The notes beneath the pieces were generated by a model. That model was not told the DNA's origin and made no database searches. It saw nothing but the letters and a program-made list of their open reading frames with translations. A stretch of 63,376 bases of DNA, filler included, from a bacterium (GTDB taxonomy: Bacteria > JACRDZ01 > JAQUKH01), in assembly GCA_028719205.1 (NCBI GenBank). It is 4 parts of 4 records of this genome, joined end to end, with 100 filler letters (N's around TTAATTAATTAA, not from the genome) between each part and the next. Parts side by side here need not be neighbours in the genome. Positions count along the whole stretch, not along the records: positions 49,246 to 63,376 come from JAQUKH010000047.1; 3 more parts are not named here. One strand, written 5' to 3'. Position numbers and translations under genes: made by a program. Shown here piece after piece: positions 8,870 through 60,834 of the stretch (positions are counted from its first letter, which is position 1; every line of letters begins with the position of its first letter).

Positions 8870-10771
8870 TTGAATATTATAATCTTAAATAAAAAATCTT
8901 TTTTCCTAATTATTTTCACGGCTTTTTTTATTGTCCAAGTTGGTTGTTTAAAGAAAGCCGCTCAAAATAATTTAATGGACCAAAAGTTGGCAGAAAGTCC
9001 AGATCCAGAAAAATTGGCTTCCGATGTGCCTGACTTAAAACAAGACAGCCTGAATGATCCTAAAATTGCTGTAAGTTCCAAAGCCGGACCCGCGACAGAA
9101 TCGAATGTCATAAATAATGACCCTCTCATTCTTATAAATGATAACAGACAGTCAAAATCAGTTATAGAAAACATTCCCTCGTTAGAAGAGGTTGTTAATA
9201 ATACTTCAAATAATGAAATATTGGAAGAAGATACAGCAGAGGTTATTATTAATGATGTTAATAATAAAAAACAGGATGAGCAAATAGTACTGAAAGATGG
9301 AAAGGCGCTGATCCAGGAACATTATAGTAAGGCCTTGAGTTTCTATGATTCCGGGGAATATGATAAAGCTAAAGCAGAATTAAATGTATGTTTAAAAATG
9401 ACCGCGGACCTGGATCTGGATATCGAGACACTATTTAGATTCAGTGATATTTATAAAGATGTTTTTGAGAGTACGGCAACTATGGAAGTCACTGCTGAAC
9501 AAAATATTTTAACAGATTCAACTGTAGATTCAACTGTTTTAGATATTAATATTGTTCAGGAAGAAAAAATGATTATGGAAGGTTTAGATAATGGCGGGGT
9601 AATATATGATTTCCCTGTTGAATTTAATGAAGAGGTTAAAAGATATATTAAATTATATACGACAAGCAACCACAAAGCTATGGCGGGCCGTTTAGCCAGA
9701 TCCGGCAAATATATTGCTATGATGAAAGAAATTTTTAAAAATGAAGGATTGCCGCAGGATTTAGCATATCTGCCTTTGATAGAAAGCGCTTACAAGGTAA
9801 AGGCATACTCCAGAGCCGGAGCGGGAGGCCTATGGCAGTTTATGAGGAAGACCGGCCAGAGATATAGTTTAAAATCAGACTGGTCGGTAGACGAACGTTA
9901 TGATCCGGTTGCTTCAACAAAAGCCGCCGCAAAATATCTAAAAGATCTCTATAAAATATTTGATTCATGGCTTTTAGCGGAAGCCGCGTATAATGCGGGG
10001 GAATATAGGATCCTAAGAGCTATGGGGCTTGCTGTAAGCCGGGATTTTTGGTATATTGCAAGCAAAAATATTCTAGCAAGAGAGACAAAAGGGTATGTAG
10101 CGGCTTTTATGGCAAATTTGATCATTGCTAAAAATCCGGAGAAATTTGGATTTACAAATATACCATACGAACAGCCATTAGAATATGATGAGGTTGTTAT
10201 CGAAAACTGTGTGGAATTATCTTTTGCCTCAAGATTAGCTGAATGTTCTGTTGAAGAATTGAAAGCTATGAACCCTGCTTTATTAAAATGGTGTACTCCT
10301 ATAGATTATCCGAATTTTGTTTTAAAGATACCTAAAGGTAAGGCAGAGGCCTTTAATACTAATTTAACAAAGATAGCAAAAACAGATCCTAACGGTAAAA
10401 TTGGCTGGACTCAACATGTTGTAAAAAGCGGTGAAACAATGTCTACAATTTCCTGGAAATATGGCATTCCAATAGGCTCAATTGCTAAAGCTAATAATAT
10501 CGGTAATGTTAATAGAATATCTGTGGGAACGCGCCTGTTCATTCCTTATGGAAAGAATTCATCTCCCGATGAAGTAGCAAGCATAAAAGATGAATCCGGT
10601 TATAAAAAAATAGAATATATAGTTCAGTCAGGCGATACCCTTTGGGAAATAGGGAAAAAATACAATATAACGCTTAATAAAATAAGGGAGTGGAATATAG
10701 ATTTTTCCGGCAAAGAACACATTTTCCCGGGGCAAAAAATAGCTATTTGGATTAAAGAAGAAGAAATGTAA
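8870..10771 (+). CDS. MltD-like lytic transglycosylase lipoprotein with two LysM domains
   Basis: Lipobox-like QVGC; LIES, AGGLWQFM, AAYNAGE SLT motifs; HVVKSGET and YIVQSGDTLW LysM repeats. Confidence 0.9.
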   Translation: MNIIILNKKSFFLIIFTAFFIVQVGCLKKAAQNNLMDQKLAESPDPEKLASDVPDLKQDSLNDPKIAVSSKAGPATESNVINNDPLILINDNRQSKSVIENIPSLEEVVNNTSNNEILEEDTAEVIINDVNNKKQDEQIVLKDGKALIQEHYSKALSFYDSGEYDKAKAELNVCLKMTADLDLDIETLFRFSDIYKDVFESTATMEVTAEQNILTDSTVDSTVLDINIVQEEKMIMEGLDNGGVIYDFPVEFNEEVKRYIKLYTTSNHKAMAGRLARSGKYIAMMKEIFKNEGLPQDLAYLPLIESAYKVKAYSRAGAGGLWQFMRKTGQRYSLKSDWSVDERYDPVASTKAAAKYLKDLYKIFDSWLLAEAAYNAGEYRILRAMGLAVSRDFWYIASKNILARETKGYVAAFMANLIIAKNPEKFGFTNIPYEQPLEYDEVVIENCVELSFASRLAECSVEELKAMNPALLKWCTPIDYPNFVLKIPKGKAEAFNTNLTKIAKTDPNGKIGWTQHVVKSGETMSTISWKYGIPIGSIAKANNIGNVNRISVGTRLFIPYGKNSSPDEVASIKDESGYKKIEYIVQSGDTLWEIGKKYNITLNKIREWNIDFSGKEHIFPGQKIAIWIKEEEM

Positions 10772-53347: not shown

Positions 53348-53467
53348 GATGTTCCTTTCTTTACTTAAAAATTAGATATAACTTTTAAATACTAAATTTG
53401 AAAATAGAAAATTGACCGAAATCGGGATCTTTTAATCTAATTTCAATTGCCGATTCTCGATTTCTCT

Positions 53468-53496
53468 GTTTTTGTCCGCATTAAGCGAACAAAAAC
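53468..53496 (-). terminator. Hairpin downstream of tRNA
   Basis: GTTTTTGTCCGC-N5-GCGAACAAAAAC. Confidence 0.5.
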
Positions 53497-53573
53497 TGGT
53501 GGGCCCACCTGGACTTGAACCAGGGACCCGCTGATTATGAGTCAGCTGCTCTAACCAACTGAGCTATGGGCCC
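53497..53573 (-). tRNA. tRNA-Ile2 (CAT anticodon, lysidine type); tRNA-Met(e) less likely
   Basis: GGGCCCATAGCTCAGTTGGTTAGAGCAGCTGACTCATAATCAG...GGGCCCACCA; follows rpoD. Confidence 0.85.
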
Positions 53574-60012: not shown

Positions 60013-60089
<77 letters not shown>

Positions 60090-60146
60090 GCGCTATTTAA
60101 AATCGATCTAACTCTTTTCCCGTTCGAGTCTAACTATATACTAAAA

Positions 60147-60223
60147 TGGTGGGCAATACAGGACTCGAACCTGTGGCATCCTGCGTGTAAGGCAGGCGCT
60201 CTAACCAACTGAGCTAATCGCCC
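60147..60223 (-). tRNA. tRNA-Val (TAC)
   Basis: GGGCGATTAGCTCAGTTGGTTAGAGCGCCTGCCTTACACGCAGG...TTGCCCACCA. Confidence 0.95.
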
Positions 60224-60247
60224 GAAATTAAATTCTTACCAATCATC

Positions 60248-60335
60248 AACCTGTGGCATAGCCGATGCAACATCGGCTCGCTCCCTGTCCGCCTCAGGCG
60301 GATAACCAATCCCGATGCATCGGGACTAATCGCCC
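60248..60335 (-). pseudogene. Degenerate tRNA-Val copy interrupted by three short palindromes
   Basis: Four exact tRNA-Val blocks in order (GGGCGATTAG, TTGGTTA, GAGCG, ATGCCACAGGTT) separated by palindromes; 3' half of T-arm and acceptor stem absent. Confidence 0.85.
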
Positions 60336-60378
60336 AAAATAAACCTAGAAATATATCTTCGGAATTTGAGATTTCATT

Positions 60379-60406
60379 ATTATACTCATTTTTTTTATTT
60401 TGTCAA
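60379..60406 (-). promoter_or_regulatory. sigma70 promoter of tRNA operon
   Basis: Minus strand TTGACA-N16-TATAAT. Confidence 0.75.
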
Positions 60407-60437
60407 GACTATGTTAAATTTTAAATATATAAAGAAA

Positions 60438-60465
60438 TTGACTTTTAAAAAACAAAGGTTATAAT
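60438..60465 (+). promoter_or_regulatory. sigma70 promoter
   Basis: TTGACT-N16-TATAAT. Confidence 0.65.
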
Positions 60466-60504
60466 ATGGGCTTGAGGGGTTTGGTCTTGAAAAAGGAGGA
60501 AAAA

Positions 60505-60834
60505 ATGGAAAAATTTTTACAAGATGTACCTGAACACAACTACTTTTGGGTACTGTCCGGGCTCAAATTAAAAAATTTAGTTGAATTGGCGGGAGCATTA
60601 GAAACTATGACGGATGAAGTTTTCAATTATCACGTAAATGAATCCAAGAACGATTTTGCCTGCTGGATAAAAGAATGTATAAAAGATACCGCTCTTGCCG
60701 AGGCATTATTGGCTACTAAATCAAAAAAAGACATAGCTAAAAAAGTAAAAGACCGGGTTGCTGAAATACAAAAACCTAAAGCTGAAATACAAAAACCTAA
60801 AAAGGATGTTATCCAGCCAAAGAAGAAAAGGTAA
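60505..60834 (+). CDS. Small DUF5752-like protein
   Basis: AGGAGG SD; F...G..LKNL.EL...LE......FNYHV....NDFA.WI......D..LA pattern; 21-bp tandem duplication 60760-60801 (AEIQKPK x2). Confidence 0.7.
   Translation: MEKFLQDVPEHNYFWVLSGLKLKNLVELAGALETMTDEVFNYHVNESKNDFACWIKECIKDTALAEALLATKSKKDIAKKVKDRVAEIQKPKAEIQKPKKDVIQPKKKR

Follow-up and report, generated by a model that had tools for sequence, protein, structure and literature searches.

The window, the whole 63,376-nt stretch of DNA analysed here, consists of contigs C44-C47 of a bacterial genome (G000) joined by runs of N. G000 is a metagenome-type assembly (68 contigs, 2.59 Mb, 37.6% G+C). The only other genomes of its genus are those of two sister species, G001 and G002, and two further genomes (G003 and G004) come from the same phylum. 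On C47 a partial copy of the tRNA-Val(TAC) gene, interrupted by three short palindromes, lies between a putative promoter and the intact gene. tRNA genes were called with ARAGORN and Rfam 15, and 170 nt were read on either side of the 39 ARAGORN genes of G000. The tRNA-Val(TAC) leader and the genes that follow it contain these features:

60379..60406, minus strand: putative sigma-70-type promoter, TTGACA-16 nt-TATAAT, 12/12 consensus matches
60326..60335, minus strand: pseudo-tRNA block 1, tRNA-Val positions 1-10 (acceptor 5' strand, U8, A9, G10), 10/10 identical
60310..60325, minus strand: palindrome 1, TCCCGATG/CATCGGGA, 16 nt without a loop, replaces CTCAG (positions 11-15)
60303..60309, minus strand: pseudo-tRNA block 2, D-loop TTGGTTA, 7/7 identical
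60284..60302, minus strand: palindrome 2, TCCGCC-TGA-GGCGGA (15 nt) plus CAGG, inserted between the D-loop and the D-stem 3' strand
60279..60283, minus strand: pseudo-tRNA block 3, D-stem 3' strand and position 26, GAGCG, 5/5 identical
60260..60278, minus strand: palindrome 3, AGCCGATG-TTG-CATCGGCT, 19 nt, replaces exactly the 17-nt anticodon arm (positions 27-43)
60248..60259, minus strand: pseudo-tRNA block 4, variable loop, T-stem 5' strand and first two T-loop bases (positions 44-55), 12/12 identical
60224..60247, minus strand: spacer of 24 nt between the pseudo-fragment and the intact tRNA
60214..60246, minus strand: 10-codon mini-ORF (open reading frame), translated as MIGKNLISGD*
60147..60223, minus strand: intact tRNA-Val(TAC), source or partner of the pseudo-fragment (ARAGORN; Rfam 73.8 bits)
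60013..60089, minus strand: tRNA-Asp(GTC), second gene of the presumed transcription unit (ARAGORN, Rfam)

The pseudo-fragment (60335-60248, minus strand) is a copy of the first 55 nt of tRNA-Val(TAC) in which three GC-rich perfect palindromes stand between four kept blocks. These comprise tRNA positions 1-10, 7 nt of the D-loop, position 26 together with the D-stem 3' strand, and positions 44-55. Each of the 34 kept tRNA bases (34/34) was identical to its counterpart in the intact gene. The anticodon arm and positions 56-76 are missing, and the copy ends two bases into the T-loop. An original prediction, made from the sequence of the window, had described a tRNA-Val copy with matching blocks and three palindromes, two of which took the place of CTCAG and of the 17-nt anticodon arm, and had noted the lack of target duplications. 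This description was borne out, and no target duplication is visible at any of the three palindromes. Neither ARAGORN nor Rfam called a tRNA at 60248-60335, even at E up to 10. Rfam 15 gave no match for this leader, nor (at E up to 0.1) for three similar leaders or two repeat families described below.

The same prediction placed the copy downstream of a promoter and expected it to be transcribed. The position was confirmed, and transcription of the fragment is plausible because a sequence that matches the sigma-70 consensus at 12 of 12 positions lies upstream on the same strand. A divergent sigma-70-like promoter (60438-60465, plus strand, 11/12) points toward the gene upstream and stands back to back with the tRNA promoter. 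In the predicted minimum-energy fold of leader and tRNA, the acceptor 5' strand of the leader pairs with the 3' end of the true tRNA (z-score -2.36). The leader contains no ORF with a GIY-YIG domain, only the 10-codon mini-ORF. This frame starts one base after the pseudo-fragment and stops at the TAG formed by U8-A9-G10 of the intact tRNA, a layout identical to that of the full GIY-YIG ORFs at other loci.

Reads support the sequence: a Logan contig of sequencing run X1 (3089 nt, depth 8) showed 0 differences over 60198-60700. X1 may be the source sample of G000 itself, so the contig represents an independent assembler and not an independent sample. Mapping of runs showed depth spikes over both tRNAs (Val and Asp). 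Runs X2, X3 and X20 covered the tRNAs only, from contigs of other organisms, and were uninformative on the Val-TAC leader. One X3 contig, aligned at 60199-60327, joins a tRNA-Val-like 5' end to tRNA sequence with 22 additional letters in between, among them a TCCCGAC..GTCGGGA palindrome. Its probable source is a different organism whose tRNA copy is interrupted in a similar way.

The Val-TAC leader had been taken for a stray, riddled duplicate. It is instead one of four promoter-proximal, palindrome-bearing 5' tRNA copies in G000, the others standing before Val-GAC (C11), Ala-GGC (C3) and Pro-UGG (C17), and its architecture is shared across phyla around a small GIY-YIG gene. In each of the three other leaders a consensus-like promoter is followed by a 5' copy of the tRNA that comes next. 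These leader copies hold palindromes of the same families and end in or near the T-loop, 20-40 nt 5' of the intact gene. The Ala-GGC copy shows another exact replacement of the anticodon arm and keeps all tRNA-derived bases (27/27). A T-G pair in one hairpin of this leader is tolerated on the sense strand only. The Val-GAC leader carries a third palindrome motif, CCTGCC..GGCAGG.

Filled and empty sites could be compared between species only at tRNA leaders, as genes of G000 and G001 are about 80% identical and intergenic DNA hardly aligns. The Ala-GGC loci were compared by pairwise alignment, and the promoter is alignable between the species. In G002 the site is empty, with no pseudo-fragment, as the original prediction had proposed that relatives might show. 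G001 has a pseudo-fragment with one palindrome at the position of the anticodon arm, then an 87-aa ORF that starts directly after the T-loop bases, then the intact tRNA. Its arm palindrome equals palindrome 3 of the window save for one loop base, at the same position. G000 has a pseudo-fragment with a different arm palindrome and no ORF, and a second palindrome stands where G001 keeps native tRNA sequence. The 19 tRNA-derived bases shared by the two pseudo-fragments are identical, and their arm palindromes differ by two compensated stem pairs and by the loop.

At Val-TAC, G001 has palindrome 2 (an identical 15-mer) and a T-arm piece only, and G002 has neither. The Val-GAC and Pro-UGG leaders are present only in G000 and absent from all four relatives examined. 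Presence and absence of these structures thus vary among relatives at the same site for all four tRNAs. A further case was found at tRNA-Ser(UGA) of G002, where a pseudo-fragment breaking off in the anticodon loop and three CCGCC-type palindromes are followed by a 79-codon ORF and the intact tRNA.

Several other tRNA leaders are filled with tandem heptamer-like repeats (TTGTGAC/GTCACAA in G000 and G002, ACTGAAC/ACTGATT in G002). These lie at C14:1900-1997, C14:41011-41180 and C41:6350-6410 and 9190-9250 in G000, and at loci L002 and L026 in G002. The G002 repeats occupy sites at which G000 has pseudo-fragments.

The palindromes were counted by pattern search with reversed-pattern controls in the five genomes. 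CCCGAT-N0-6-ATCGGG occurred 33 times in G000, 18 in G001, 2 in G002, 3 in G003 and 2 in G004, and its control 0 times in all five. For TCCGCC-N1-6-GGCGGA the counts were 20, 51, 2, 2 and 4 in the same order (controls 0, 2, 0, 0 and 1). The exact pattern AGCCGATG-N3-CATCGGCT was found once in G000, as palindrome 3, with a one-base variant in G001. The genome-wide counts suggested with the original prediction therefore yielded two repeated families, and a third pattern that is unique in G000. The palindrome 2 unit with CAGGGAG also occurs at C15:45317. GC-rich perfect hairpins numbered 349 in G000 vs. 93 and 84 in two shuffles. Four patterns gave 73 family palindromes in G000, 61 of them outside long open frames. 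Thirteen of the 73 lie at most 400 nt from a tRNA, a proximity that applies to 1.3% of the genome. A census of tRNA fragments by short BLAST was informative only for matches of at least 19 nt, chance 12-mers being abundant.

In the families the loops vary and the stems are constant. Among 68 family hairpins of at least 7 pairs, from the G000 leaders and related loci, 6 positions were mismatched in total, in 5 hairpins. These 6 positions in 68 hairpins were too few for a comparison of stem mismatches between strands, as a sign of selection on RNA or DNA. The palindromes look like a DNA-level feature: near-perfect symmetry, constant stems, free loops and unit-wise replacement argue for a DNA-level process with sequence recognition.

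No enzyme that could be responsible is encoded in the window, as had been noted. Candidates lie outside it, on C14 and C9 of G000 and in the orthologous leader of the sister species. The two genes on C14 and C9 are the only stand-alone GIY genes of G000, and both have family palindromes within about 350 nt. The partner ORFs consist of a single GIY-YIG domain (75-103 aa) of the UPF0213/Slx1-like type. All six ORFs tested matched Pfam GIY-YIG (E 1e-14 to 3e-19), the only other domain match being the overlapping T5orf172. A profile search of PDB with the ORFs gave the UPF0213 structures 1zg2 (E 2.6e-19) and 1ywl (E 1.4e-14), followed by SLX1 (E 5e-4). The protein is nearly absent from phage and plasmid collections, with 1 weak record in each.

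A further repeat in G000 forms a long imperfect stem that is tipped by a family palindrome and precedes TTGTTATCCTC. It occurs at C9:60283-60400, C11:62480-62560, C15:29960-30040, C5:35940-36020 and C2:8770-8850. One copy lies directly upstream of the GIY-YIG ORF on C9, and the four others have no adjacent GIY ORF.

Relatives of the G001 Ala-GGC ORF were collected from a one-genome-per-species collection, which yielded 49 loci. By record title these belong to Saccharibacteria and other Patescibacteria, Omnitrophota, Gammaproteobacteria, Bdellovibrionales, Ignavibacteria, Chlorobiota, Bacteroidota (Algoriphagus isolates) and others. A tRNA lies on the strand of the ORF in 43 of the 49. It is downstream in 31, upstream by 17-173 nt in 11, and 7 loci have none adjacent. 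The downstream tRNA starts -75 to +20 nt from the ORF stop in 27 of the 30 loci listed. Ten of these ORFs run into the tRNA and stop at a conserved TAG (U8-A9-G10, or the D-stem TAG of Glu); full ORFs ending at the TAG of the tRNA include those of L052, L056, L057, L059, L061 and L070. The first 10 nt of the cognate tRNA were found upstream of the ORF in 21/31 loci, compared to 45/918 mismatched pairings. Of the 47 loci with enough sequence, 23 have a CCGAY..RTCGG or CCGCC..GGCGG palindrome in the 150 nt that precede the ORF. The density of family palindromes is 5.67 per kb upstream of the ORF vs. 0.27 per kb elsewhere in the same loci (21-fold).

The placement of the palindromes was read by eye. 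Some stand at a point in the D-arm, where tandem pairs are frequent, and some within the anticodon loop; others substitute for the anticodon arm, which is replaced exactly in L051, L052, L053, L057, L081 and L088. The last palindrome stands 6-15 tRNA-derived bases before the end of the pseudo-fragment. Loci with the tRNA upstream are a mirror image, in the order intact tRNA, terminator-like hairpin, ORF and partial second tRNA. Here the last codons of the ORF are the D-loop of the partial tRNA, the anticodon arm of which is replaced by a palindrome. In Algoriphagus this partial tRNA also carries CCTGCC..GGCAGG, the motif of the Val-GAC leader of G000. When stem type was mapped on the protein tree, 18 changes were needed vs. 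28.8 in shuffles, and 0/200 shuffles were as low. The clustering shows that palindromes are inherited with the cassette formed by tRNA fragment, palindromes and ORF. It does not show specificity, and it is not evidence of co-evolution, because relatives share labels anyway.

Two details of these loci concern exchange and palindrome structure. In L056 and L054 the pseudo-fragment differs at several positions from the tRNA after the ORF, and that of L056 resembles another tRNA species. These differences point to joint transfer of pseudo-fragment, palindromes and ORF to another tRNA, or to replacement of the tRNA itself. In L080, L074 and L056 two tandem palindromes have complementary loops. The L080 pair forms one perfect 30-nt palindrome, the L074 pair is one base short at the 3' end, and the L056 pair has one mismatched position. 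This is the pattern expected of an inverted duplication of a single hairpin.

The anatomy described above recurs at the four tRNA leaders of G000, in sister species and across these loci, and ORF, tRNA fragment and palindromes are linked. We give a probability of roughly 0.6 to the reading that the Val-TAC leader is an ORF-less remnant, or a non-autonomous copy, of a selfish GIY-YIG cassette that invades tRNA genes. Either the ORF has been lost from the Val-TAC copy, or the copy was made in trans. We read the palindromes as the signature of the cassette. A complete cassette would comprise a tRNA promoter, a partial tRNA interrupted by palindromes with CCGAY/RTCGG, CCGCC/GGCGG or CCTGCC/GGCAGG stems, a GIY-YIG ORF of 75-103 aa, and an intact tRNA that keeps the host viable. 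The nuclease would break tRNA genes at generic features, namely the D-arm, anticodon loop and T-loop of at least 15 tRNA identities. Repair from a cassette-bearing template would then copy in the ORF with enough tRNA sequence to rebuild one intact gene, and the displaced part of the tRNA would stay behind as the pseudo-fragment. The tRNA promoter could drive the cassette, the message of which would end where RNase P cleaves at the intact tRNA, and many ORFs would take the tRNA's own TAG as their stop. The palindromes may be recognition structures of the nuclease, scars of its action, or spacers against direct-repeat recombination that would delete the cassette; in this genus they would also have spread to other hairpin tips. 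The Val-TAC leader today would be transcribed and then trimmed away, and is probably an inert relic.

With respect to the mechanism first proposed, which wrote palindromes into DNA, the turnover of whole units next to fixed tRNA bases in the Ala-GGC leaders of G000 and G001 agrees with it. The process is, however, not an anonymous one.

Several points weigh against the cassette reading. The Val-TAC leader has no ORF, and its spacer bears no significant resemblance to any GIY ORF (115/200 shuffles scored as well). The other G000 spacers, locally aligned with 55 GIY ORFs, gave no usable signal either (171, 54 and 3 of 200 shuffles each were as good for Val-GAC, Ala-GGC and Pro-UGG, respectively). 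No ORF-bearing Val-TAC allele is present in the sister species. The mini-ORF is possibly a collapsed GIY-YIG ORF, which is a weak argument: it consists of position and frame, and the frame has a 1-in-3 chance. Among the related loci, 10/31 have no recognisable tRNA 5' start and 24/47 no motif palindromes by pattern. In two of these 24 (L047 and L053) the pattern missed a palindrome that lies inside the called ORF start. The number of palindromes does not track the number of GIY genes (2 GIY genes with 2 + 2 palindromes in G002, 2 with 33 + 20 in G000). The 49 loci were reached from one query protein via six peptide words and do not sample the family at random. Several taxon labels of metagenome-assembled genomes (MAGs) may be wrong, so that transfer between phyla is not established. 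Nuclease activity, binding and mobility are putative for every family member, and cleavage of an empty allele with copying of the gene into it is inferred from the anatomy and from the precedent of phage SegB. Finally, the intact tRNA beside the cassette would be expected to keep any target site that lies in the tRNA, and a simple homing model leaves the escape from renewed cutting unexplained.

A related reading, which we regard as possible but doubtful, assigns the swap of hairpin for hairpin to the stand-alone GIY-YIG proteins themselves, which would drive a form of DNA mobility not yet described. The Slx1-like protein would act as a structure-specific nuclease on hairpins that extrude from tRNA genes and other palindromic DNA, cleaving them at their base. 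Perfect palindromes of a few conserved stem types would then be put by repair where the original arm had been, leaving no target duplication. In the course of these events part of the tRNA would be duplicated and the nuclease gene brought in, and tRNA sequence would serve as a portable homology arm for moves between loci, tRNA species and phyla. The Val-TAC leader would then be a fresh footprint. The original suspicion that hairpins are the targets was well placed insofar as palindromes stand where hairpins were, in the anticodon arm and at the tip of a mini-hairpin in another repeat family. In the latter, a repeat downstream of ten tRNAs in G000, some copies have CCCGAT- or TCCGCC-type palindromes at the place of the 7-nt mini-hairpin.

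Somewhat less credible still is the explanation that the palindromes are autonomous miniature elements, like repetitive extragenic palindromic (REP) sequences or miniature inverted-repeat transposable elements (MITEs), which a host or other enzyme acting in trans inserts at hairpin-forming DNA. The tRNA fragment would then be a local duplication that gathered three of them, and the GIY gene a bystander with the same niche next to tRNA genes. Its strength lies in the distribution of the families, which are numerous only in G000 and G001 and rare (2-4 each) in G002-G004, irrespective of GIY number. Most copies are not beside a GIY gene or a tRNA (60/73 in G000 are more than 400 nt from a tRNA), and in at least three other repeat families a palindrome forms a tip that some paralogous copies have and others lack. 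G000 also has three Y1/HUH genes. The proposal of an HUH partner, however, now appears unlikely: the palindromes beside these genes are different ones, and the 1.5 kb around each gene contain no CCGAY, CCGCC or CCTGCC palindrome. End tags of the GTAG or CGTC type, a feature of REP sequences in the available text of PMC3733652, were absent from the flanks of the 33 + 20 copies, which show T...A or AG...CT closing pairs. The 21-fold enrichment of the stem motifs upstream of GIY ORFs was found in distant phyla and in genomes not chosen for palindromes, which would not be expected of an element specific to one genome. Four promoter-proximal 5' copies ending in or near the T-loop are also hard to obtain by unrelated duplications.

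We consider it unlikely that the leader is a functional RNA, in which arms were swapped for inert hairpins and which competes for tRNA 3' strands or protects the 5' end. Such an RNA would tune the processing or yield of tRNA-Val and tRNA-Asp. The 34/34 identity of the blocks, although genes of the sister species differ by about 20%, would fit this explanation, as would the 27/27 kept bases of the Ala-GGC copy, the predicted pairing of leader and tRNA 3' end, and the sense-strand-only T-G pair. The block identity is equally obtainable by gene conversion from the adjacent tRNA, however, and near-perfect Watson-Crick stems with no excess of G-U pairs indicate selection on DNA rather than RNA. The leader is missing at the G002 loci, the Val-GAC and Pro-UGG leaders are missing in four relatives, and Rfam gave no match. 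No RNA run that contains the region is among the sequencing runs listed.

It is very improbable that the fragment is the attachment-site leftover of an integrase island or prophage, or a tandem duplication in random decay. tRNA genes are common integration targets, and G000 has classical 3' tRNA fragments (Leu-CAA and Glu-CTC). The Val-TAC fragment, in contrast, comes from the 5' part of the tRNA and precedes the intact gene by 24 nt, with no element separating the two (no whole-contig integrase screen was made). Random decay predicts point changes, and we observed 0/34 together with three perfect palindromes of recurrent families, in a build shared by four tRNAs. A chimeric join of tRNA-containing reads, for which the 68-contig metagenome-type assembly and the attraction of reads of many organisms to tRNA regions (depth spikes) might speak, has next to no likelihood given that the X1 contig of another assembler spans promoter, leader and the start of the intact tRNA without a difference, that three leaders of the same build lie on other contigs, and that like structures occur in Algoriphagus isolate genomes.

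For the window alone the consequences are modest. If the cassette reading is true, the stand-alone GIY-YIG family UPF0213, which is very common and of unknown function, would gain a testable role as a selfish element of tRNA genes, ranging from Patescibacteria to Bacteroidota. It would explain a class of tRNA-like remnants encountered by tRNA finders and annotators at either end of tRNA genes. It would also represent a natural system that places short perfect palindromes at defined structural positions in DNA, which bears on the origin of REP-like repeats and on SLX1-like nucleases. A mobile gene would thereby live inside an essential gene without an intron, supplying a spare gene part and borrowing promoter, processing site and stop codon. 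A full-text search, with most subscription journals outside its reach, found no description of stand-alone GIY-YIG genes flanked by palindrome-bearing tRNA fragments.

Other repeats accompany tRNA genes in G000. At least 10 tRNA genes are followed by a repeat about 110 nt long ('...GAACGGGAAAGAGG...GGGGTGACAG[variable tip]CGCCAGAGGGGCGGAGCCCC...'). It begins with an inverted copy of the T-arm of its tRNA, and six copies end with a direct copy of the last 15-24 nt of the tRNA. Full copies are found at C4:80150-80300, C14:40730-40880, C15:52440-52571, C17:34780-34929 and C17:41815-41979 and on C7, C9, C20 and C37. A partial copy stands in the window between tRNA-Val and tRNA-Asp (60090-60146, minus strand), and Rfam gave no match for it. 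The repeat looks like another element aimed at the T-loop. The second family downstream of tRNAs ('GATTTTCTGCC..GGCAGAAAATCAGAGCAATCGA...CGATTGCGGTC[ ]AA.TTCGATT.TCGATTTTC') is present in the window at about 53390-53496 (minus strand), downstream of tRNA-Met (53497-53573), and elsewhere at C3:62035-62160, C4:17960-18097, C14:2074-2180 and C17:31264-31370 and on C11. The bracketed site is filled by CCTGCC..GGCAGG on C3 and C4 and empty on C14, C17 and C47; these are paralogous filled and empty copies without target duplication. A third repeat, of up to about 80 nt, occurs in seven places with matches of 37-92 nt (C1:43740-43820, C6:27594-27639, C6:49085-49162, C15:55487-55536, C20:10496-10531, C20:14976-15056 and C29:21593-21683). 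It has a CCCCGATG..CATCGGGG palindrome beside a T-loop-like GGTTCAATTCG, is not linked to any ORF, and has like copies in G001.

Among known systems, integrating elements leave partial, non-functional tRNA copies beside the intact gene, as described in the accessible part of PMC9897764. Two such fragments were found in G000: 55 nt of the 3' part of tRNA-Leu(CAA) at C5:51396-51450, 1.15 kb downstream of the gene, and 28 nt of the 3' part of tRNA-Glu(CTC) at C4:93301-93328, 8.8 kb downstream. Such 3' fragments commonly mark the far end of an integrase-borne island, and both are likely borders of integrated elements. The Val-TAC fragment differs from them in being a 5' fragment that is filled with palindromes and only 24 nt away from its gene.

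Small dispersed palindromic repeats of cyanobacteria and the palindromic elements of Rickettsia insert in other sequences. They and the palindromes of organelles resemble the present ones as tiny hairpin units inside other sequences, structural RNA genes included, with no target duplications. Their sequences appear unrelated to those found here, and none is known to be tied to a GIY-YIG gene or a partial tRNA duplication. For organelles the example is Volvox (PMC2670323, in its accessible part).

REP sequences and REPINs, with their REP-associated tyrosine transposases (RAYTs), are also short GC-rich extragenic palindromes in tens of copies that are apparently mobilised in trans. They differ from the families described here, which replace structural arms inside a tRNA copy. 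The Y1/HUH transposase-like genes of G000 lie at C26:1896-2137, C3:88566-88999 and C14:25790-26116. Upstream of the C26 gene stand GGGCAGAC and GGGCGAAC palindromes, which form the most frequent GC-rich hairpins of G000 (14 and 18 copies). Copies read with their flanks, four of them tipped by CCTGCC..GGCAGG and one upstream of tRNA-Gln, end in CCCCTAC. These palindromes and the C26 gene look like a REP/RAYT system.

The ORFs of complete cassettes belong to UPF0213 (1zg2, 1ywl) by sequence, while the Val-TAC leader itself has no ORF. The accessible text of the survey by Dunin-Horkawicz et al. 2006 (PMC1564403) describes a stand-alone Slx1-like group with a minimal GIY-YIG domain and unknown function. 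Its members neighbour or fuse with COG4123 and TrmH-type methyltransferases, from which a link to RNA metabolism was suggested, with hints of a connection to tRNA-modifying enzymes, and that text mentions no adjacency to tRNA genes, no tRNA pseudo-fragments and no palindromes.

The cassette resembles SegB of phages T4 and T6, where a GIY-YIG nuclease gene stands beside tRNA genes and is duplicated with tRNA sequence. SegB has a separate DNA-binding part. [quoted passage not shown] Together with what is accessible of PMC2330249, this account describes cutting in tRNA-containing DNA followed by recombination that copies nuclease gene and tRNA sequence. The available account in PMC13096335 does not mention a palindrome-substituted tRNA fragment. 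SegB is a phage protein of the I-TevI lineage, whereas the present proteins are encoded on chromosomes, have no part besides the domain and fall in the Slx1-like UPF0213 branch.

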